Below, piece after piece: positions 1,898 through 23,801 of a DNA stretch of 51,610 nt. Location of the stretch: positions 1-51,610 of the forward strand of contig JBBRLY010000009.1 in the NCBI GenBank assembly GCA_038231155.1, read 5' to 3'. The notes below the pieces were generated by a model. It saw only the letters and a program-made list of their open reading frames with translations, had not been told where the DNA came from and made no database searches. Position 1 is the stretch's first letter; each line of letters starts with the position of its first letter. This stretch comes from Candidatus Saccharimonadales bacterium. GTDB taxonomy: Bacteria > Patescibacteriota > Saccharimonadia > Saccharimonadales > JANWIN01. The position numbers and the translations under genes were made by a program.

Positions 1898-2953
1898 CTA
1901 AACAGTGTAAATTACCGGTTCTAGAGTATCTATCAGTAGATCATCAAGTACTTCCGTTTTTTGGAGTTGCCTGGATAAACCTAAGTTGATAATATGCATA
2001 ATCATCGACTCGTAGTCCATATTCTGATTTATTTTACAAGCGCTAGTAAAGTAGCTTGTGAAATCGTGATTGGCAACACCTGGAATTAAATTTGCTTCCA
2101 AGAAGTATAACCTGTCATGCTCATCCATTCTAATATCAATGCGTCCGTAATCTCTGGCACCTAATGCTTTATAAGCAGCTTTAGCAAAATCTATAATTTC
2201 ATTTCGCACTGGTCCAGGACTTACAGGTCTTACCTGTTCGCTATCTTCCGTTTTAATCTTGCTACTTAATACTCGGTCTCCTAAGTCATTTGGCTGAGTA
2301 AGAAGTTCAATTGGCATTGCAATTGGACTGTCTTGATACTTAGAATCAAGTAATGCGACACTAAACTCACGCCCCATTAAGTACTTTTCAACTAGTGCAA
2401 CCGTTCCATAGTTCTGTTCAATCTTCAAGACCTTACGTTCATAAGACATGAAATCTCTGACGATTGAATCATCATCAATTCCTTTGCCTCCACCTAGCTT
2501 AGGTGGCTTGATAAATAACGGGAATTTCAATGGTAAGGCGCCGGCACTCCGATATTGACCTGGCTGAGCAGTAAAATATGGAGCGGTCAATATTCCAGCA
2601 TCAGTTATTATTTTTTTGGCAGCTACTTTATTATGATCTAAAGTCATCGCCAGTTTATTAGAGCCAGTGTAGTTTATTTGATTATCATCTAAATACTCGG
2701 CTATCCATATATTACTATGACGTTTAGAATGGTCGTTCGATCCAGGTATATTTTTGAATCCCACAAATACCAAATCGGGCTTTTTAGCAACTAAAGCCGC
2801 TAGATCATGTTTACTATTTACTTGGCTAATACCAACTTCTTGAAAGTGGTTTTGGAGCAGCTGGCAGATCATTTCACATGACTTCAACCCCATAGACGAT
2901 AAGCCTGAGGTTGATGTACGCAGTATTTCAATATGTTTATTAATTTTTGTCAT
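1898..2953 (-). CDS. ddl: D-alanine--D-alanine ligase family ATP-grasp protein (atypical)
   Basis: YTGS..LAMTLDHNKVAAK, FPLFIKP...GGGKGI, LVEKYLMGREFSV, RDYGRIDIRMD, YFLEANLIPG motifs. Confidence 0.7.
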   Translation of the reverse strand: MTKINKHIEILRTSTSGLSSMGLKSCEMICQLLQNHFQEVGISQVNSKHDLAALVAKKPDLVFVGFKNIPGSNDHSKRHSNIWIAEYLDDNQINYTGSNKLAMTLDHNKVAAKKIITDAGILTAPYFTAQPGQYRSAGALPLKFPLFIKPPKLGGGKGIDDDSIVRDFMSYERKVLKIEQNYGTVALVEKYLMGREFSVALLDSKYQDSPIAMPIELLTQPNDLGDRVLSSKIKTEDSEQVRPVSPGPVRNEIIDFAKAAYKALGARDYGRIDIRMDEHDRLYFLEANLIPGVANHDFTSYFTSACKINQNMDYESMIMHIINLGLSRQLQKTEVLDDLLIDTLEPVIYTV

Positions 2954-12861: not shown

Positions 12862-15312
12862 TTAAATAACTAAATTAAGTAGTTTACTAGGTACATAAAT
12901 AGTATTTTTGATCAATTTATCTTTAGTGTATTTTTGAACTCTTGGATTGGTCGTAGCCGTTTCTTTTACTTGTTCTTCTGAAGCGTCGACCGGCAGATCG
13001 ATGTTGGCCCTAACCTTACCATTAACCTGAACAACAATTGTCATACGATCGGACAATAAATACTTAGGATCATGGGTTGGCCATTTGCTTTCGTGAACCG
13101 ATCCTTGATTACCGAGCTGTTCCCATAATTCTTCACTAATATACGGCGCAAAGGGTGCTAGCAGCTGGATTAATGTTTGAATTGCCAATGCCCACTCTTG
13201 GTGGTTTTGGAAATGATCTTTTTCCTTTGTTTTATACAGCGCATTAACCATTTCCATTAAGGCGGAGACAGCGGTGTTAAAACCAAGCTCGTCTAAGTCT
13301 TTACTGACGCGTGCAATAGTTTGATGCGCCAGCCTTAACAATACTTCCGATTCACTACTGCCCTTAGCTTCCGGTTTTTGAACAGACCTCTGCTCGTTAT
13401 ATTCTTGTACCAATGTCCAAACTCTCTGTAAAAAGCGGAAAGTTCCACCCAAACCTTCAATGCTCCAATTTGCAAGCTGGTCCCACGGACCAATAAACAA
13501 TTCCATGATTCGAATTGAATCAGCACCGTAACCTTGGTCGATTAAATCATCAGGGGCAATCACGTTACCCCAACTTTTACTCATTTTTCGACCATCAGAA
13601 GCTAAAATCATACCTTGGTTTCGAAGTGTCGTAAATGGTTCGTCAAACGTAATTAGACCCTCATCAAACATCACTTTTGTCCAGAAACGAGAATACAGTA
13701 AATGCATTACTGCGTGCTCGGCACCACCAATGTAGTCATCAACCGGCAGCCAATATTTTACTTTATCTTTTGCGAAAGCTTGTTTGTCGTTATTTGGATC
13801 CGCAAATCTTAAAAAGTACCAACTGCTACAGGCAAAACCGTCCATAGTGTCAGTTTCGCGTTGTGCTGGGCCTGCACACACAGGGCAGGTTGTATTTACA
13901 AATTCAGGCACCCTAGCCAAAGGGCTACGGCCATCCCCGCTAGGTTCATAACTTTCCATTGGCGGTAATTTTACCGGTAGATCTTTTTCTGGAACTGGTA
14001 CGGCACCGTCTTTAGGACAATGAATAATCGGAATCGGAGCACCCCAATAGCGCTGACGACTGATTAACCAATCCCTGATTTTGTAATTAATACGTTCAGT
14101 CGCGTATCCAGCTTCTACCATGTCAGCTAGAATTTTTTCCCGCACTTCTTCTGTTCTTAAACCGTTATAACTATCCGAATTCATAACTATGCCTTCACTG
14201 TGGAAATCATTCCCATCTTCATTTTTGTAGACTTTGCGTATTTCCAGACCGTATTTTTCAGCAAACAGTTTATCTCGAGAATCATGTCCTGGTACTCCCA
14301 TTACCGCACCAGTTCCGTAACCCAATAAAACGTAATCCGCAACCCAAATGGGAACTTTTTCTTTGTTAATTGGATTAATGGCGTAAGCACCGATAAAAAT
14401 ACCGGTTTTTTGTTTGCCAGCTTCTTCTTGACGTTCTATATCACTTTTGAGAAGCGACTTTTGGATATATTCTTTAACCGATGATTTATATTTGTCAGTT
14501 GTTAGGCTTTGAACCAGTGGGTGCTCCGGAGCAAGTACCATAAATGTAACGCCGTATTGAGTGTCTTGGCGTATTGTGAAAACATTCACTTTTTGACTAT
14601 TATTTTCTATGTTGAATTCAATTTCAGCGCCCGTGCTCTTACCAATCCAATTACGCTGCATGGTTTTAATAGATTCAGACCAATTCAATTTATCGAGATC
14701 AGACACTAATCTATCGGCATAGTCAGTGATTTTAAAGAACCACTGTTTGAGAGCCTTTTTCTCAACCTTGGCACCACTGCGCTCTGCATTCCCATCTATA
14801 ACCTGTTCATTAGCTAACACCGTTTTATCTACTGGATCCCAATTCACTAAGGCCTCTTTTTGGTAAGCTAGACCTTTTTTAAAAAGCAATAAAAACAACC
14901 ATTGAGTCCATTTATAGTAATCTGGATCGCTACTGTTGATTTCGCGTGACCAGTCATATCCAAAACCCATTTGCATTAACTGCTTTTTAAACTTGGTGGT
15001 ATTTTCCTGAATTGCTTGCTGGGGGCTAATGCCTGATTTGATAGCATAATTTTCCGCTGGCAGACCAAAAGCGTCCCAACCCATTGGATGTAAGACATTA
15101 TCCCCCATCATTCGCCGCCAACGAGCTATAGCATCTCCAATTGTATAATTGCGTACATGCCCTACGTGCATGGCAGCACCGCTGGGATATGGAAAGTACT
15201 CTAGTACATATCGCTTAGGCTTTTGGGGATCTTCTACTGCCCGGTAAATGCCCCGGTCTTCCCAGCTTTTTTGCCATTTAGCCTCAATTTGTTTTGGATT
15301 ATAGCGCTTCAC
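12862..15312 (-). CDS. leuS: Leucine--tRNA ligase; likely GTG start at 15312
   Basis: FPYPSGAAMHVGH (HIGH), KMSKS, CP1 domain GTGAVMGVPGHDSRD, DWLISRQRYWG. Confidence 0.97.
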   Translation of the reverse strand: MKRYNPKQIEAKWQKSWEDRGIYRAVEDPQKPKRYVLEYFPYPSGAAMHVGHVRNYTIGDAIARWRRMMGDNVLHPMGWDAFGLPAENYAIKSGISPQQAIQENTTKFKKQLMQMGFGYDWSREINSSDPDYYKWTQWLFLLLFKKGLAYQKEALVNWDPVDKTVLANEQVIDGNAERSGAKVEKKALKQWFFKITDYADRLVSDLDKLNWSESIKTMQRNWIGKSTGAEIEFNIENNSQKVNVFTIRQDTQYGVTFMVLAPEHPLVQSLTTDKYKSSVKEYIQKSLLKSDIERQEEAGKQKTGIFIGAYAINPINKEKVPIWVADYVLLGYGTGAVMGVPGHDSRDKLFAEKYGLEIRKVYKNEDGNDFHSEGIVMNSDSYNGLRTEEVREKILADMVEAGYATERINYKIRDWLISRQRYWGAPIPIIHCPKDGAVPVPEKDLPVKLPPMESYEPSGDGRSPLARVPEFVNTTCPVCAGPAQRETDTMDGFACSSWYFLRFADPNNDKQAFAKDKVKYWLPVDDYIGGAEHAVMHLLYSRFWTKVMFDEGLITFDEPFTTLRNQGMILASDGRKMSKSWGNVIAPDDLIDQGYGADSIRIMELFIGPWDQLANWSIEGLGGTFRFLQRVWTLVQEYNEQRSVQKPEAKGSSESEVLLRLAHQTIARVSKDLDELGFNTAVSALMEMVNALYKTKEKDHFQNHQEWALAIQTLIQLLAPFAPYISEELWEQLGNQGSVHESKWPTHDPKYLLSDRMTIVVQVNGKVRANIDLPVDASEEQVKETATTNPRVQKYTKDKLIKNTIYVPSKLLNLVI

Positions 15313-15349
15313 TTGGACATTGTACGATAATTTACCTCTGTAGTCACTG

Positions 15350-16255
15350 CTAGCGACCAAAGAATAAACCTTGCGAGTTAGACTGCAAGTTGAGTAGCTG
15401 TCCTACATTAACGAATTTATATTTCGGAGTAAGATCACGCAGGATGCTGTCTAGTGCCAATGCAGTTAGTGCATGATCGTGCATCACTAAAATCGCACCT
15501 GGGCGAACTTGAGTTTCAACTTGTTTAATTACACTGGCTGTATCTTTTTGGGCCCAGTCTTTGGGATCAACGTTCCATAAAATAACTGCCATTTTAATCT
15601 GACTTAATACTGCTGGGTTTACGGCCCCATAAGGTGGTCGAAACAAGTAAGGTGCTGGAATACCGGTAACAGTAATGGCATTTTGGGTTAGATCAATCTG
15701 TTGTTGAATTTGCGATACATTTAGTTTCGTAAAATCAGGATGTGACCAGCTGTGGTTGCCTACATCGTCGCCGTCGGTATACATACGTCTAACTAGGGCC
15801 GTATTTGGTGCTACTTTCAAACCAATCAAAAAGAAACTGGCATGGATTTTATATTTTTCAAGGGTATTTAAAATAAGCGGGCTGGAGTCGGCATTAGGAC
15901 CATCATCAAAACTAAGCGCGATACAGGCATCAACCTTACAGTCGGCTGGTGGTGGTGGCGGTGAAGCTAGCAGTTTATCTACTAAAAAACTGGACGGATT
16001 TCCGGTTTCTGGCAATAAATGTTCGATGTCGATTGATTGGCCGGCTACATGACCTTGCGGTTTGATTGGTTTTATTATTAAAGGTTTTGGCGCGGACGAA
16101 GCTTTAGTTGTAAGGCTACTGAAAGTTACAAATATAAGGGCTAAACAAATAAGTGCGCTGTTAATAAGCATTTGCGGCAGCAAATAAAACGATACCCTTC
16201 TTGGCCTTATATTTGGACGGTTATCCCATAACCGCCGCGAATTCACCATCCTCAC
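15350..16255 (-). CDS. Membrane-anchored polysaccharide/peptidoglycan deacetylase (NodB/CE4)
   Basis: LSFDDGP, NHSWSHPD, FRPPYG, WNVDPKDW and VMHD motifs after an N-terminal TM segment. Confidence 0.92.
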   Translation of the reverse strand: MRMVNSRRLWDNRPNIRPRRVSFYLLPQMLINSALICLALIFVTFSSLTTKASSAPKPLIIKPIKPQGHVAGQSIDIEHLLPETGNPSSFLVDKLLASPPPPPADCKVDACIALSFDDGPNADSSPLILNTLEKYKIHASFFLIGLKVAPNTALVRRMYTDGDDVGNHSWSHPDFTKLNVSQIQQQIDLTQNAITVTGIPAPYLFRPPYGAVNPAVLSQIKMAVILWNVDPKDWAQKDTASVIKQVETQVRPGAILVMHDHALTALALDSILRDLTPKYKFVNVGQLLNLQSNSQGLFFGR

Positions 16256-16299
16256 GCTGCTCTCAAGATAGCGTAGGTCTAAGTCAAGGTCAACCGTAA

Positions 16300-17325
16300 C
16301 TACAGGTGGCGTACTTTACGCCGAGCGGTTTCAAATAAATAAGTAGCTTGATATTTTATGGGGTTAACTACCAAATCGCGAGCCGGTAAATAAGCAACAT
16401 CTTGACCACCAAATCCACGCTTGAATACTGATGCTCCGTAAAAGCGGTGTTTGGTTTGTCCATGTTCGGTAATTCCCCAAAAATCATATAGTCTGCAGCC
16501 GCGTCTCTTAGCTTCATGAATAGCTTCCCATTGTATGGCATATGCACCTGGATACTGTCTGGCAAGATCAGTGCTGGCACCATAGTGATAAGCCGCTTCG
16601 CCGTTATAAAAAATTATAAAGGCCATAGCTAGTAGTTTGCCTTGATAAGTTGACCTGTACATCAAAACTTTGTCAGCTTTCGCAAATAATTTAAATTGTT
16701 CTGTTAAAAACTTATAAGAAAAAGGTACAAATTTCTGACGCTTGGCTGTTTGGATTTGCAGATTATAAAACTCATCTAATAACTTAGGTTCATTGGTAGC
16801 TTCAACTTTAATACCAAGTTTAATGGACCGATTGATTTCATACCTGGTACCTTTACGCATAGCTTTTTTAAGTTCATCATCATCTTTAGACAGATCGAGT
16901 TTACTGGTCAGTTGGGCATGTAAGTGCATAGGTGCTGTTTTAAAACCTAAGGTTTTAAACAGCTGGACTGCTTCTGATGTATTTAGAAGTTGTGGCCTAA
17001 CTCTAACAAATAGGCAGTTATGCTGTTTAGCCAGCTGCCCAATCTCGTTGACCCAAGTTGTTATAAGTTGCTGATTGTTCCAATTAAGGATTGGACCGCC
17101 GGGAATAGCTAAATGACGGCCTCTTTTTGCAGGTTCGACGACTGCTAAATTTAGTCCGACTAAATTGTCGGATTCATAGAAACCGCTACGAATAATTTGA
17201 TGTCCAAGTTGTTCATGAAATTCACCCCAATACCAGGATTGTAAAAAATTAGCTTCAGGATGTAAGGTGATGAATTCTTCCCAAATCTGCTGCTGGTCTA
17301 TGATTTTTGTTGTAATGTTTGCCAC
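16300..17325 (-). CDS. FemAB/FemX-family aminoacyl-tRNA-dependent aminoacyltransferase (GTG start)
   Basis: FLQSWYWG, YHYGAS, AIQWEAIHEAK, YDFWG and FKRGFGG motifs; short form with no coiled-coil insert. Confidence 0.9.
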   Translation of the reverse strand: MANITTKIIDQQQIWEEFITLHPEANFLQSWYWGEFHEQLGHQIIRSGFYESDNLVGLNLAVVEPAKRGRHLAIPGGPILNWNNQQLITTWVNEIGQLAKQHNCLFVRVRPQLLNTSEAVQLFKTLGFKTAPMHLHAQLTSKLDLSKDDDELKKAMRKGTRYEINRSIKLGIKVEATNEPKLLDEFYNLQIQTAKRQKFVPFSYKFLTEQFKLFAKADKVLMYRSTYQGKLLAMAFIIFYNGEAAYHYGASTDLARQYPGAYAIQWEAIHEAKRRGCRLYDFWGITEHGQTKHRFYGASVFKRGFGGQDVAYLPARDLVVNPIKYQATYLFETARRKVRHL

Positions 17326-18497
17326 TGCTTGATTTTAGCACAAATATCAGCCGCAATTACTGGGGTAATATGCCGGTGAGTTGGTAAGTTGACGATATGT
17401 TTAGCCAAATCTTCAGCTGATGGACAGCTACCGGCCTGATAGTTTGTTTTAGCCAAGTAATTCTTAGGACCAATTGGCGCATCGTACCAAGTGTCGCCAA
17501 TAAAGATATGTTGAGTACGTAAATAGTCAATAAGCGGCTTGGGGTCGTCTAGTCTAATCGGAAAACGTAGATAAGTTGGTTGACCGTTGTTGGGCTGAAT
17601 TAGCTGCAGTTCACTTATTATATTTTTGGTATAGATAGCGGCAATCTCCCGCCGGTGGTCTAGTTCAGATTGTCTATCCTGCCAGCGCTGCAAAATTAGT
17701 CCTGCGGTACTGCTCGACATACTATGCAGTCCTTCGAGTCCTTCGCTCATTGGAGTAGATAATAAGTGAAACCGTTTAAGACTAAAGTGCAAAACCCGCC
17801 CAATACCTAATTGATAAGTAGTCCGGATTAAGCCTGTCCAAAACGGATAAAAACGGTTTTTTAGGCGTTGCCAAGCTGAAACTAGTGGTAATTTAGTTAG
17901 ATTATTAGAAGTATTAGAGCGTCGATCGATTAAAGCTCCGCCGGCCACAACGTCTACCGGTTTATCCTGGCTAAATGACAGCATTATTAAAGCACCGACC
18001 GTGCCGACTTCCCGCCCATCGCTATAAATTGCTCCGACGGAATGAGCTAAGTCTTCGATTAATAAGATGCTTTGCGCTTTGCAGAATTTATCCAACTCTA
18101 CCATATCGGCCGGATAACCCAATGTGTTTTGGACAATTATGGCACTTAAACCGGGATTTTTAATTTTGGCATGTTTGAGTTGAATAATATCAAAGTTTGT
18201 TTGACCGGGAGTTATATCAATAAATAAGGCTTGATAACCAGCATTAACTACAGCCTGGTAAAGTACGTAGCATGTAAAGCCGTTAATACCAACTAGGCTA
18301 CCGGGAGGTAAATTACTATGGCGTAAGGCCAACTCTAAGGCCTCGCGACCTTTATAAGTCAGTATTACGTTTCCAGTGTAATGTTCTTTTAGGACTTGTT
18401 GAAGGTTATTAGACGCTGTTTTAGAGCTAAAAGCCAGTAAATTCCGCCAAACAAACTTTCCGGAGTAATTTGAGCCTAGTGAATTAAAAATACTCAT
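17298..18497 (-). CDS. DegT/DnrJ/EryC1/StrS-family PLP-dependent aminotransferase
   Basis: KGREALELAL, IEDLAHSVG (PLP Asp), LSFSQDKP..AGGAL (Schiff-base Lys), VNLPTH. Confidence 0.85.
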   Translation of the reverse strand: MSIFNSLGSNYSGKFVWRNLLAFSSKTASNNLQQVLKEHYTGNVILTYKGREALELALRHSNLPPGSLVGINGFTCYVLYQAVVNAGYQALFIDITPGQTNFDIIQLKHAKIKNPGLSAIIVQNTLGYPADMVELDKFCKAQSILLIEDLAHSVGAIYSDGREVGTVGALIMLSFSQDKPVDVVAGGALIDRRSNTSNNLTKLPLVSAWQRLKNRFYPFWTGLIRTTYQLGIGRVLHFSLKRFHLLSTPMSEGLEGLHSMSSSTAGLILQRWQDRQSELDHRREIAAIYTKNIISELQLIQPNNGQPTYLRFPIRLDDPKPLIDYLRTQHIFIGDTWYDAPIGPKNYLAKTNYQAGSCPSAEDLAKHIVNLPTHRHITPVIAADICAKIKQWQTLQQKS

Positions 18498-18500
18498 ATT

Positions 18501-19190
18501 TTAGCGACCTAATACTTTTACAACTATCGATGCGGTTTTTTCAGGATGACTGAAGAATGGTGAATGACGGGCATCGTCAATGATATATAAATCTGAACTA
18601 GCTATAGACTTATGCATTAATTGAGCTTCTTTAAGCGGCGTAATAGTGTCTTCCCTTCCCCAGATAATTGTTACGGGCAGGTTTATTAGTGATAAATCAA
18701 GTAACTGGTCGGCCTGTAGCATGTTTTGCATGGTACGTTTCATATTAGGCGGAGCGTTGTAGTAATCCTTAGCACCGATAAGCTTATAGAAGACTTTTTT
18801 AAGCGGTGGTATATATGAAAATAGTTTGCCAATTTTAGATAAAAATTTAAGAGTTTTTAGTTTAAGTAATGATCGTCTTTCAGTGTGGGCAATCCCGGCA
18901 CTGTCTATTAATATAAGCTGTCCGATCCGGTTTGGATATTTTTGAGCAAATGACAAGGCAATACGACCGCCGTTAGAGTGACCGATTACGGTTGGTGATT
19001 TTTGGCCACTTAACTGTTTATTTAACCACTCTATATAGCCATCGATATCCCATACTTTATCGCTGTCATCGGTTAAGCCTGGCACTCTAAGTTGAACTGG
19101 TTCAATATTATGTTTTCGTAGCTCAGCACAAAATACTGACCATTTATCCAAACTATAGGTCCAGCCATGAATAATGAAGACTTTTTTCAT
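18501..19190 (-). CDS. Alpha/beta-fold hydrolase
   Basis: IIHGW, GHSNGG nucleophile elbow, WGREDTIT, DARHSPF; ATGA overlap with the murF stop. Confidence 0.9.
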   Translation of the reverse strand: MKKVFIIHGWTYSLDKWSVFCAELRKHNIEPVQLRVPGLTDDSDKVWDIDGYIEWLNKQLSGQKSPTVIGHSNGGRIALSFAQKYPNRIGQLILIDSAGIAHTERRSLLKLKTLKFLSKIGKLFSYIPPLKKVFYKLIGAKDYYNAPPNMKRTMQNMLQADQLLDLSLINLPVTIIWGREDTITPLKEAQLMHKSIASSDLYIIDDARHSPFFSHPEKTASIVVKVLGR

Positions 19191-20467
19191 TTAGGTAATC
19201 CCCAGGCTTGGCGACGTTTTATGTCGGCTGACTCACGTCGTACAAGTTGCGCTTGGTCTTTTGGATCGGCTAATAATTGTTCGATTACACCCTCCAGGCC
19301 GCGTGCCCCTTTAAATAATACAGTTTCACCGCCTTTAAGATTAGCATTTAAATAATCAAGCACTTCTTTGGGACTTTCGAATACCGATATCGGAGTTTGA
19401 GGCACTGCCTGTTTTAAGATGGGGTAACTATATTTTTTAATCCTAGGGCCCAGTAAAATTATATGTTCTAGTTTATGTGTAGCTATATTGTAAGCTAATT
19501 TTTCATGTTCCTGCTGTTCAACGCTTCCTTGCTCTAAAATGTCACCGATTACTAACCACTTTGATTTACTGGGGTACAAGTCAAATAAATTTAAAAGAGC
19601 ATTCATAGCGCCTAAGCCGGTATTGTAAGTGCTATCTATAATCGTAATGTGATGACTGCCTTTAAACACACTGCTGCGGCCCGGAGGTGCCTGGTAGCGC
19701 GAATAGTTTTGATCTAGTCCCAAGCCTAAATAATCTAGTAATTGGTTAACCATTTGTAGGCCAATAGCCAGTTCTTTAGGTTGTACACCTGGTAATTGAA
19801 TGGTTTGACCGTTAAATCCAAAAACCGTCTCGTGAACTTTTATTTGATATCGGTCAATCCGTGCAAGTGAAACTCGTTTAACAGCTACAGACCGCTTAGC
19901 CCTTTTTAGTTCATTTACTAAGTCTGGTTGATCGCCGTTAGCGATAACTAACTTCTGGGTGGCTGACACAAAGTAACCAAATTCGTGAGCTATGGCTGCC
20001 TCATGGGATGGGAATTGGCCATTTTTGACTAGTTTGTCAAAATTCATAGAGTGAGTCCGATAAACGCTCACCCATAACAACACCTCCGGTTTCAGAAGCT
20101 TCGAGCTAAATCTACCCTCTTTGGGGCGGTCACAGTCGGATTCAACAATATATAGTTTTTGCTTGGGAAGTTTTCTAAAAATATGAAAAGGTGCTACTAA
20201 GATATATTTCAACCAAGCTGATTTGGATGGTACATTTGGTTTAAGGCCCAAAATATTAAAAGGTATGCCGATGGCGCTGTTAGCATGATGAGAGTAGGTC
20301 GCTTTAGCACCTAGCTGGGCTTCTATCATATGTAGTGTTGAGGTTTTGCCGCTAGAGCCCGTTACCACAATAATTCTAGGACGCCACCTCAGTAAAACTA
20401 GCTTTGCCCAAAATCCAAAATAGGCGGCAACAACAAAATAAAGACGCAGTTTTAATTTATGGAGCAT
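19187..20467 (-). CDS. murF: Mur ligase, MurF-like
   Basis: VTGSSGKTST P-loop, IIDSTYN, VIGDILEQG, LFKGARGLE. Confidence 0.8.
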   Translation of the reverse strand: MLHKLKLRLYFVVAAYFGFWAKLVLLRWRPRIIVVTGSSGKTSTLHMIEAQLGAKATYSHHANSAIGIPFNILGLKPNVPSKSAWLKYILVAPFHIFRKLPKQKLYIVESDCDRPKEGRFSSKLLKPEVLLWVSVYRTHSMNFDKLVKNGQFPSHEAAIAHEFGYFVSATQKLVIANGDQPDLVNELKRAKRSVAVKRVSLARIDRYQIKVHETVFGFNGQTIQLPGVQPKELAIGLQMVNQLLDYLGLGLDQNYSRYQAPPGRSSVFKGSHHITIIDSTYNTGLGAMNALLNLFDLYPSKSKWLVIGDILEQGSVEQQEHEKLAYNIATHKLEHIILLGPRIKKYSYPILKQAVPQTPISVFESPKEVLDYLNANLKGGETVLFKGARGLEGVIEQLLADPKDQAQLVRRESADIKRRQAWGLPK

Positions 20468-20514: not shown

Positions 20515-20550
20515 TGGTGGAGCATTTGCGGGATGACCCACAAACGCCCC
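20515..20550 (-). ncRNA. tRNA-Ala-like acceptor minihelix (36 nt, CCA-ended)
   Basis: GGGGCGTTTGTGGG-TCAT-CCCGCAAATGCTCC-ACCA: 14 consecutive pairs including G3:U70, then discriminator A and CCA. First 5 and last 9 nt are identical to both tRNA-Ala genes in the window. Confidence 0.7.
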
Positions 20551-22666: not shown

Positions 22667-23572
22667 TTATTGTAAACTTTTTTGGATGCGTTGTTGTAGA
22701 TCAGTATCAGTAATTGTATGAGACGGAATTTTAATTGAATTTTCAATACCCTGGGCACTATAGTCAACTGTTTGTTTAGTGGATGGGTAGCTAAGTCTTA
22801 AAATATTACGAGACATTTTATCTACACTGATTTGCACTTGAAGTGGTTGAGCGTTTTGATATTGTGATGCATCTATGCCAGTGTTATCGAGTCCCAGCTC
22901 CTTAGCATATTGCAGCAAAACATTTACGTAAGCTAATGGGGAAACATTTACATCGTAAACATAAACCGCATGAGAATAAAGCTTGCTACTCTTAACACCA
23001 GAGATTTTATATACATTTTTATCTTTCATCATCTTAATTAAAGTATTACGTTGATCGCGGTTAAAATTTCCAAATGGTATAAGACTAAAAACATTTTGCT
23101 TGAAATATTGGGGTGACCTTTGGCTAGTAGCTGAAGCGTCGGTTTTAGACCAAATTCCAACAATATTGGCAGTATTAATCGGTTTGCCTTTACTATTTTT
23201 TTGAGTGGTATTGATGCTAATATACCGGCTGTAATCTGTTTTAGGCGTTCCAATCGATTCAGATTTGGCAGTAGCTTTAACATTATTTTGGTTTTGATTG
23301 AACGTCACTAAAGTATTGACAGCATTAGTCGATCCAAACTGTAGTTTAATATATTGATCGAGTGAACCTCTTTGATCTCCCTGAGTAAAGTGTCGAGTTA
23401 CACCAGCAGTAGCCAAGTTATTGTCCATCATTCCCCAAAATACTTGGTTTGTGTTTATATAAACTTTATACCAAAAGGTAATACTTACGGCAATTAACAA
23501 AAATACAATGATAAGGCCTATCGCAGTATTATTCCTTTTTAATGCTGAGCTACTGTTTGCTCCATCAATCAT
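22667..23572 (-). CDS. Hypothetical N-terminally anchored extracellular protein
   Basis: 301-aa ORF with one N-terminal TM (AIGLIIVFLLIAVSITFWY); TGTTACAAT promoter 6 nt before the ATG. Confidence 0.75.
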   Translation of the reverse strand: MIDGANSSSALKRNNTAIGLIIVFLLIAVSITFWYKVYINTNQVFWGMMDNNLATAGVTRHFTQGDQRGSLDQYIKLQFGSTNAVNTLVTFNQNQNNVKATAKSESIGTPKTDYSRYISINTTQKNSKGKPINTANIVGIWSKTDASATSQRSPQYFKQNVFSLIPFGNFNRDQRNTLIKMMKDKNVYKISGVKSSKLYSHAVYVYDVNVSPLAYVNVLLQYAKELGLDNTGIDASQYQNAQPLQVQISVDKMSRNILRLSYPSTKQTVDYSAQGIENSIKIPSHTITDTDLQQRIQKSLQ

Positions 23573-23626: not shown

Positions 23627-23702
23627 GGGGCCGTAGCTCACCTGGTAGAGCGCAGCATTCGCATTGCTGAGGTAGGGGGTTCGAGTCTCCCCGGCTCCAC
23701 CA
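23627..23702 (+). tRNA. tRNA-Ala(CGC)
   Basis: Cloverleaf GGGGCCG/CGGCTCC, anticodon arm CAGCA-TTCGCAT-TGCTG, TTCGAGT T-loop, encoded CCA. Confidence 0.95.
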
Positions 23703-23724: not shown

Positions 23725-23801
23725 GGGGCTATAGCTCAGCTGGCTAGAGCGCTTGTATGGCATACAAGAGGTCTGGGGTTCGAGTCCCCATAGCTCCACC
23801 A
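23725..23801 (+). tRNA. tRNA-Ala(GGC)
   Basis: GGGGCTA/TAGCTCC, anticodon arm CTTGT-ATGGCAT-ACAAG, TTCGAGT, encoded CCA. Confidence 0.95.

Follow-up and report, generated by a model that had tools for sequence, protein, structure and literature searches.

A block of four genes in a genome of the candidate phyla radiation (CPR, or Patescibacteria) stands where the genomes of many close relatives carry ddl, the gene for D-alanine–D-alanine ligase (Ddl). The block, which we call the cassette, encodes a MurF-type ligase (MurF*), an alpha/beta hydrolase (ABH), a DegT-fold pyridoxal phosphate (PLP) enzyme (DegT*) and a FemX-like aminoacyltransferase (FemX*); asterisks mark the cassette forms. It lies on contig JBBRLY010000009.1 (positions 1–51,610, forward strand), the whole of which, 51,610 nt, was analyzed and is called the window below. 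The window is contig C9 of the 0.93-Mb genome (96.8% complete; G000) of a Candidatus Saccharimonadales bacterium (GCA_038231155.1). Because the cassette is conserved in the CPR and sits exactly in the ddl slot, it probably represents an undescribed tRNA-dependent finishing of the peptidoglycan stem peptide. On balance, we slightly favor the reading that it is a tRNA-dependent route, of inferred chemistry, that bypasses Ddl in forming the stem-peptide terminus. Our literature searches turned up no account of the cassette, and none of Saccharibacteria losing Ddl or encoding a natural alanine minihelix.

A four-gene unit conserved across the CPR

We compared the window genome with 40 genomes of the same order. 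Orthologues of FemX* (49%–71% identity), DegT* (39%–62%) and MurF* (44%–72%) occurred in the same ten relatives, to which those of MurF* were confined; these ten and the window's own genome are the 11 cassette genomes. The order MurF*-ABH-DegT*-FemX* was contiguous in all ten relatives. A scan with one genome per species gave 80 loci, with the four-gene block in almost all of those where the contig allows it, including loci from Levy-, Davies-, Roizman- and Gottesmanbacteria and from Doudnabacteria. When the neighbors in 101 loci were clustered, FemX was found in 98, DegT in 91, MurF in 89 and ABH in 87; the next commonest family was found in 26. Other, more distant CPR classes have the same four families in an alternative order, ABH-MurLigase-DegT-FemX, in which the N terminus of the Mur ligase has a membrane segment bearing the motif WQLKEYRxDR.

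The conserved unit is the four genes MurF*-ABH-DegT*-FemX*. The initial annotation had described a tightly coupled and unexplained envelope pathway of five genes, and had suggested a gene-neighborhood survey for their co-conservation. The coupling is supported, and the survey upheld co-conservation of MurF*, ABH, DegT* and FemX* across Saccharibacteria, Microgenomates and Doudnabacteria. The fifth gene, for a carbohydrate esterase family 4 (CE4) deacetylase, did not hold up as an operon member: it was present in only 14 of the 101 loci, and in G001, a genome of the same family as the window's, it lies between ddl and leuS, the leucyl-tRNA synthetase (LeuRS) gene, beside an ordinary murF-ddl pair. 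Because of this arrangement, we regard CE4 as part of the synteny backbone of the lineage and not of the cassette; it follows FemX* in six of the ten cassette relatives. The protein matches PF01522 (NodB; 106 bits), with PgdA as the best NCBIfam model (160 bits against a cut-off of 800); its translation shows the motifs FDDGP and HSWSH, and it carries an N-terminal membrane anchor. Judged from its sequence, it probably acts outside the cell. CE4 would then be a separate extracytoplasmic peptidoglycan-modifying enzyme, a neighbor of the cassette and nothing more.

Several loci depart from the common arrangement. Two (L113 and L117) have MurF-ABH-FemX-FemX, with two tandem FemX genes and no DegT detected, and a third (L125) has MurF-ABH-DegT-FemX-FemX, again with FemX in tandem. 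In L128, L132 and L133, where ABH is absent, a Transglut_core gene lies beside DegT-FemX or FemX; this transglutaminase-like gene may stand in for the hydrolase as a non-orthologous substitute. A seryl-tRNA synthetase (SerRS) gene directly adjoins the cassette in L136, L139 and L140, from distant families, and is near it in four loci, including L128. We dropped SerRS adjacency as a pointer to the amino acid used, given only four loci where it is near and three where it is directly adjacent. Some cassette contigs (L050, L058, L061, L062, L075–L077 and others) are titled "Gammaproteobacteria", "Pseudomonadales" or "Chlamydiae bacterium", and are probably mislabeled bins.

The cassette and murF-ddl share one genomic slot

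A strong Ddl or a second MurF was found in none of the 11 cassette genomes, whereas 28 of the 30 others had a strong Ddl, usually beside MurF. Strong matches in these non-cassette relatives scored 126–251 bits or were partial matches at contig ends, and the Ddl of one of them, G008, passes the curated cut-off (307 against 262 bits). For Ddl, the cassette genomes hold only an ATP-grasp paralogue of 65–83 bits, weaker matches or nothing.

The two gene sets lie between the same borders. Upstream is a gene for a conserved 301-aa membrane protein (up301), which gave no match in Pfam and NCBIfam scans and precedes both slot types; downstream is the LeuRS gene, in nine of ten cassette loci and 19 of 21 murF-ddl loci. 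The slot of cassette genomes reads up301-minihelix-MurF*-ABH-DegT*-FemX*-(CE4)-LeuRS, the minihelix being a small RNA-like element described below. The 21 non-cassette loci read up301-(ABH homologue)-MurF-Ddl-...-LeuRS or up301-short MurF-short Ddl-LeuRS. The switch between cassette and murF-ddl occurs even inside the window's own family (f1). Across the Saccharimonadales relatives, the cassette is thus mutually exclusive with canonical murF-ddl and lies in the same genomic slot, and DegT* and FemX* stand where Ddl stands. A homologue of ABH, 28% identical, precedes canonical murF-ddl in relatives; the presence of an ABH homologue beside MurF in both slot types implies that ABH goes with the ligase, leaving DegT* and FemX* in the place of Ddl.

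The slot gene sets (L153 and L157–L176; G001–G037) are of three kinds: ABH'-MurF (∼478 aa)-Ddl, short MurF (∼425 aa)-short Ddl (∼300 aa), or the cassette. Some genomes (G025, G026 and G035) have two MurF types in tandem.

We then looked at a phylum sample of 401 CPR genomes, counting as strong any Ddl match with E ≤ 1e-35. FemX similarity was dropped as a phylum-wide marker of the cassette, as Fem proteins occur in 373 of the 401 genomes with continuously graded similarity. The DegT* profile was used instead; it is cleanly bimodal, with full-length matches at E ≤ 1e-57 against partial matches to generic sugar aminotransferases at E ≥ 1e-52. DegT* was found in 99 genomes, five of which had a strong Ddl, compared with 154 of the 302 DegT*-negative genomes. 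One genome (G433, locus L126) has ABH-MurLigase-FemX without DegT, and a strong Ddl.

Two other genes were considered in this context. Alanine racemase (Alr; PF01168) was not found in 38 of the 41 Saccharimonadales genomes, including Ddl-bearing ones, and we rejected it as a discriminator because it is missing irrespective of slot type. The window genome does contain a Ddl-family ATP-grasp gene outside the cassette (PF07478, 68.6 bits; NF002378, 109 bits against a cut-off of 243). We rejected it as the missing Ddl: this paralogue coexists with canonical Ddl in many non-cassette relatives and is absent from six of the 11 cassette genomes. We return below to a caveat about it.

Layout of the locus

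The features of the window discussed here are as follows.

19187–20467, minus strand: MurF*, 426 aa, Mur_ligase_M and Mur_ligase_C domains
18501–19190, minus strand: ABH, 229 aa, Abhydrolase_1
17298–18497, minus strand: DegT*, 399 aa, DegT_DnrJ_EryC1
16300–17325, minus strand: FemX*, 341 aa, FemAB
15350–16255, minus strand: CE4 deacetylase, 301 aa, Polysacc_deac_1; outside the conserved cassette
20515–20550, minus strand: minihelix, a 14-bp hairpin with ACCA, 47 nt upstream of murF*
12862–15360, minus strand: leuS, downstream border of the slot, with LeuRS conserved there
22667–23572, minus strand: up301, 301-aa membrane protein, upstream border of the slot
1898–2953, minus strand: Ddl-family ATP-grasp paralogue, PF07478; outside the cassette
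23627–23702 and 23725–23801, plus strand: tRNA-Ala (CGC) and tRNA-Ala (GGC), ordinary tRNA genes

The open reading frame listing gives the five co-oriented genes at exactly the positions first reported, all on the minus strand. The reported spacing was likewise borne out: an ATGA overlap at 19187–19190 (the murF*/ABH junction reads CCT AAA TGA / ATG AAA), a 3-nt gap at 18498–18500, a 28-nt overlap at 17298–17325 and a 44-nt gap at 16256–16299. The catalytic motifs, described as intact, consist of residues that are invariant in orthologue alignments of DegT*, FemX* and ABH, and of a P-loop and C-terminal motifs of MurF* that align to MurF 4QDI. As listed, leuS starts at a TTG (15360) and so overlaps the stop of CE4 (window positions 15330–15360, minus strand); the true start is probably further downstream, as homologues align only from residue 11–19 on.

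MurF* and its hydrolase neighbor

MurF* is the sole MurF candidate of the genome. Five genes with a Mur-ligase fold were found in total, and the other four were accounted for as MurE (409 bits), MurD (333 bits), MurC (225 bits, under its own cut-off of 335) and FolC (271 bits). MurF* passes the cut-offs of both PF08245 and PF02875 (Mur ligase M and C domains) and has the P-loop GSSGKTS. All seven of its PDB matches are MurF, and its C-terminal stretches IDSTYN and GDILEQG...EH align to those of 4QDI. Its best NCBIfam model is murF (TIGR01143), at 116.3 bits against a cut-off of 288.6, which no relative within the order reaches either. MurF* lacks the N-terminal, UDP-MurNAc-binding domain: the P-loop starts at residue 36, right after a conserved hydrophobic segment, and the match to TIGR01143 begins at model position 116, apart from a small piece at 64–123. 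As one part of the overall reading that we favor, and with the same slight preference, MurF* would serve as the cell's MurF.

ABH (Abhydrolase_1, 70.6 bits) is a small cytoplasmic serine hydrolase of the alpha/beta fold. Its triad, S72 in the nucleophile elbow GHSNGG, D181 and H209, is invariant among orthologues. The AlphaFold2 (AF2) model has a predicted local distance difference test score (pLDDT) of 81.5, with an uncertain lid region, and a Foldseek search with it returned carboxylesterases and lipases of a generic kind (ABHD6, BioH and aryl esterases among them), an answer at the level of the family.

A distinct PLP enzyme coupled to a Fem transferase

DegT* matches PF01041 (112 bits) and reaches none of the NCBIfam equivalogs for sugar aminotransferases (PseC, WecE, ArnB and others; best 70.7 bits against 423.5, with all cut-offs at least 375). 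The catalytic, PLP-binding lysine K179 is invariant in orthologue alignments, as are E148 and D149, the latter being the aspartate that holds the pyridine nitrogen of PLP in this family. R51 and C76 are family-specific, and all five residues are invariant across both gene orders. Compared with sugar aminotransferases, the motifs of DegT* are altered, with GR in place of G(S/T) and with FTC, and sequence profiles place a DegT*-specific insertion, missing from solved relatives, at about profile positions 210–265. On these sequence features, DegT* is a distinct clade of DegT-fold PLP enzymes. The structure prediction that had been suggested for it (AF2 model, pLDDT 88) recovered the DegT-family fold and did not pin down the substrate.

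FemX* matches PF02388 (144 bits) in a short form without the coiled coil, and is the single FemAB match of the window genome. Its GTG start is supported by a conserved N-terminal (M/V)A.ITTK in orthologues. F301 and K302 are invariant and align to the catalytic F304 and K305 of Weissella viridescens FemX (FemX_Wv). Residues K36 and R211 of FemX_Wv, which we take to be its contacts with UDP-MurNAc-pentapeptide, align to H37 and F202 of FemX*, in an alignment that is weak (∼20% identity).

Fusions of the two enzymes came out of a profile search against 1.84 billion cluster representatives, of which the top 150 were examined. Eight of these best 150 are fusion proteins of 706–743 aa, all with DegT at the N terminus and FemAB/Acetyltransf_6 at the C terminus according to Pfam. 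The PLP enzyme and the Fem enzyme therefore act together.

A tRNA-Ala-like minihelix flanks the cassette

The minus strand carries, 47 nt upstream of murF*, the sequence GGGGCGTTTGTGGG-TCAT-CCCGCAAATGCTCC-ACCA, which forms a 14-bp hairpin. This minihelix without an anticodon has G1-C72, G2-C71, G3:U70 and G4-C69, followed by A73 and an encoded CCA. It has the tRNA-Ala identity set, which is invariant in seven aligned sequences and visible in 18 distinct hairpins. The element adjoins murF* in about 20 Saccharibacteria loci, with a varying lower stem and at times on the opposite strand. In the seven-sequence alignment, compensatory changes were seen in nine of 14 pairs, with the top four pairs and ACCA unvarying; the pair counts and a covariance model were derived from these seven 36-nt minihelices, since an 18-sequence MAFFT alignment had the 5' G-run out of register. 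All 11 cassette genomes, and three of 30 others, had matches to the covariance model of at least 23 bits. Inside the slot, the minihelix was present in nine of ten cassette loci compared with one of 21 murF-ddl loci. A search of Rfam gave no match to it.

A mini-cloverleaf form of 62–66 nt, also recovered with the covariance model and made up of an acceptor stem, three hairpins (4–6 bp, 3–5-nt loops) and ACCA, takes the same place in other families; ARAGORN calls no tRNA there. In appearance it is intermediate between tRNA-Ala and the hairpin. Two ordinary tRNA-Ala genes lie ∼3 kb from the cassette of the window, and many related loci also have a tRNA-Ala gene close to the cassette, an arrangement suggesting that the minihelix originated by local duplication. 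The two forms were located as follows.

Minihelix (34–38 nt): L031–L037, L040, L041–L057, L090, L099, L107, L111 and L118; usually preceded by YAT, sometimes divergent from murF*
Mini-cloverleaf: L102 (3697–3762), L070 (3612–3677), L103 (284–346), L083 (3713–3778), L084 (3643–3704), L085 (3741–3802) and L071 (2571–2636)

In published work, the substrates of both alanyl-tRNA synthetase (AlaRS) and FemX_Wv include minihelices of tRNA-Ala, a microhelix and a bare duplex (PMC2175331). The activity of FemX_Wv depends on the pairs G1-C72 and G2-C71 (PMC2175331, PMC2655667), and the enzyme can transfer D-Ala from a helix, with 110-fold lower efficiency (PMC2655667). For the natural minihelix, a role as a putative aminoacyl carrier is plausible, and in Saccharibacteria it is probably the alanine donor RNA.

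A possible route and its alternatives

In the route that we favor, the cassette would complete the cytoplasmic synthesis of the stem peptide, in one or more final steps, in a lineage that has neither Ddl nor alanine racemase. DegT* and FemX* would make or complete the terminal unit for MurF*, drawing on an aminoacyl-(t)RNA ester as activated donor where Ddl uses ATP-grasp chemistry. AlaRS would load L-Ala onto the minihelix or tRNA-Ala; the PLP enzyme would invert, or otherwise convert, either the alanyl ester with its free amine or the product's N-terminal residue; FemX* would condense the alanyl unit with an acceptor amino acid into a dipeptide resembling D-Ala-D-Ala; the esterase-like ABH would release or proofread aminoacyl esters; and MurF* would join the unit to UDP-MurNAc-tripeptide. 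A bolder claim is that about a quarter of the CPR/Patescibacteria make D-Ala-D-Ala, or an equivalent, without Ddl and Alr in just this way, with AlaRS-charged tRNA-Ala or, in Saccharibacteria, a dedicated, genome-encoded minihelix unable to enter the ribosome, DegT inversion of the alanyl ester or of the product N terminus, a bond formed by Fem, an esterase that supplies or proofreads, and a MurF lacking its N-terminal domain. It would amount to a new way of performing an essential step that antibiotics target, and to the first natural use of an alanine minihelix. In this full form we consider it doubtful.

A number of observations weigh against a bypass of Ddl by the cassette. The Ddl contrasts come from tests blind to kinship (Fisher, 2.5e-8 for the 11 cassette genomes against 30 others; p = 1.2e-18 for the phylum sample), a weakness as to phylogeny. 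Neither DegT* nor a strong Ddl was found in 148 of the 401 CPR genomes, and 109 had no Ddl-like match whatever, so that Ddl loss in the CPR needs no cassette. The five genomes with both DegT* and Ddl (family f58 and G358) have DegT-FemX pairs that are divergent and lack a neighboring MurF or ABH; since such pairs coexist with Ddl, the pair can have a role other than replacing it. The ATP-grasp paralogue of the window genome could make a dipeptide. The nearest folds to the DegT* model are all nucleotide-sugar aminotransferases (TM-score about 0.7, 15%–21% identity), again an answer at the family level, and we know of no DegT-fold enzyme that racemizes or epimerizes its substrate. The minihelix also occurs in six cassette-free genomes (G008, G006, G039, G050, G146 and G402), in some of them unlinked, and it was not found outside Saccharimonadales in the phylum sample, though the cassette occurs there. 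Finally, the sequence was present only in DNA metagenomes (sediment and soil) and in no RNA runs.

The initial annotation had offered two models, neither of which uses the mutual exclusivity with Ddl and canonical MurF, the shared slot or the fusion of DegT* to FemX*. The first stays as a rival. It holds that FemX*, like FemX_Wv, transfers L-Ala or another residue from aminoacyl-tRNA onto the diamino acid of the UDP-MurNAc-peptide produced by MurF*, that DegT* and ABH modify or edit this free-amine branch, and that D-Ala-D-Ala comes from the host or from the ATP-grasp paralogue. The short, FemX_Wv-like architecture of FemX* would fit such a function, as would its best NCBIfam name, UDP-MurNAc-pentapeptide-lysine N6-alanyltransferase (NF047883; 61.3 bits against a cut-off of 500), and the gene order of murF followed by femX. 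Divergent DegT-FemX pairs beside Ddl, the Ddl-like paralogue in the window genome and the many CPR genomes that are Ddl-less without a cassette are also in line with it. Yet it leaves unexplained why the cassette occupies the Ddl slot and excludes Ddl (11/11 vs. 2/30 genomes), its ATP-grasp source is missing from six of 11 cassette genomes, and the K36 and R211 contacts of FemX_Wv align to H37 and F202 in FemX*, a weak point at ∼20% identity. We think it unlikely, while giving it real weight. The second model, in which FemX* N-alanylates an amino-sugar on a wall glycopolymer or nucleotide sugar after DegT* has aminated a keto-sugar or CE4 has freed an amine, with the stem terminus uninvolved, is unsupported and in our view very improbable. 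The fold and nearest relatives of DegT* do point to nucleotide sugars, and FemAB, CE4 and alpha/beta-hydrolase genes occur together in XrtA/PEP-CTERM polysaccharide loci, with weak matches to TIGR03019 and TIGR03006 in the window. But no oxidoreductase, dehydrogenase or dehydratase for keto-sugar synthesis was among the conserved neighbors of the 101 loci, CE4 lies outside the core, DegT* forms a separate clade with altered motifs and an insertion, and in every case the cassette contains or borders the sole MurF of the cell and excludes Ddl.

A further alternative keeps the cassette at the stem terminus and changes the product: MurF* would add a single residue, another dipeptide or a depsipeptide, prepared, or attached afterwards, by DegT*, FemX* and ABH, with, for example, L,D-transpeptidase cross-links. 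The low score of MurF* (116 bits vs. 288.6) and its absent N-terminal domain, the lack of Alr and canonical Ddl, and the SerRS genes that adjoin the cassette in three distant loci could all be read in this way. MurF* nevertheless retains its MurF-type C-terminal motifs, the flanking minihelix, with its alanine identity elements, speaks for Ala, and the window genome has a tblastn match (33% over 493 residues) to a putative penicillin-binding protein of locus L134, of unconfirmed family. A non-canonical terminus of this kind seems to us quite unlikely.

Relation to known systems and implications

The canonical combination of Alr, Ddl and MurF (e.g., in ddl-murF operons) resembles the cassette in its place in the pathway, in the slot it takes in relatives, and in the Mur M and C domains and C-terminal motifs of its ligase. 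It differs in that the cassette has a PLP enzyme and an aminoacyl-tRNA transferase and no ATP-grasp enzyme or racemase, and in that MurF* is without the N-terminal domain and scores far under the murF cut-off. The gene sets VanH/VanA/VanX and VanC/VanT likewise give MurF another terminal unit; these routes retain a Ddl-family ATP-grasp ligase, and none of the Van enzyme families is in the cassette. DhpH of dehydrophos biosynthesis reportedly joins a PLP domain to a Fem/GNAT-like, tRNA-dependent peptidyl transferase in one protein and builds a dipeptide on a small-molecule amine; unlike the cassette, it is said to belong to Streptomyces secondary metabolism, with no link to MurF or peptidoglycan.

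FemX_Wv (PDB 1NE9 and 4II9), a UDP-MurNAc-pentapeptide:L-Ala transferase, shares with FemX* its family, short architecture and Phe-Lys pair, and its important pairs G1-C72 and G2-C71 are invariant in the natural minihelix. FemX* is only ∼20% identical to it, lacks K36 and R211 in the alignment, occurs coupled with a PLP enzyme or fused to one, and takes the place of Ddl, which FemX_Wv accompanies. Dedicated aminoacyl carriers set apart from translation for the cell wall also have a precedent in the non-proteinogenic tRNA-Gly isoacceptors that feed FemXAB in Staphylococcus aureus (PMC7826273). Those are full tRNAs with anticodons, in contrast to the minihelix, a non-decoding 34–38-nt hairpin or 62–66-nt mini-cloverleaf whose charging is putative.

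The step performed by Ddl and MurF, essential for the cell wall, is where D-cycloserine acts, and it determines the target of vancomycin. If a large share of the CPR has a PLP enzyme and a Fem-type transferase doing the work of Ddl, textbook peptidoglycan biosynthesis would have an alternative branch, and tRNA-dependent non-ribosomal peptide-bond formation would enter the core pathway, beyond the decoration of side chains. The flanking minihelix would be a natural counterpart to the alanine minihelices of the laboratory, and metabolic reconstructions that score CPR genomes as ddl-less would need rereading.

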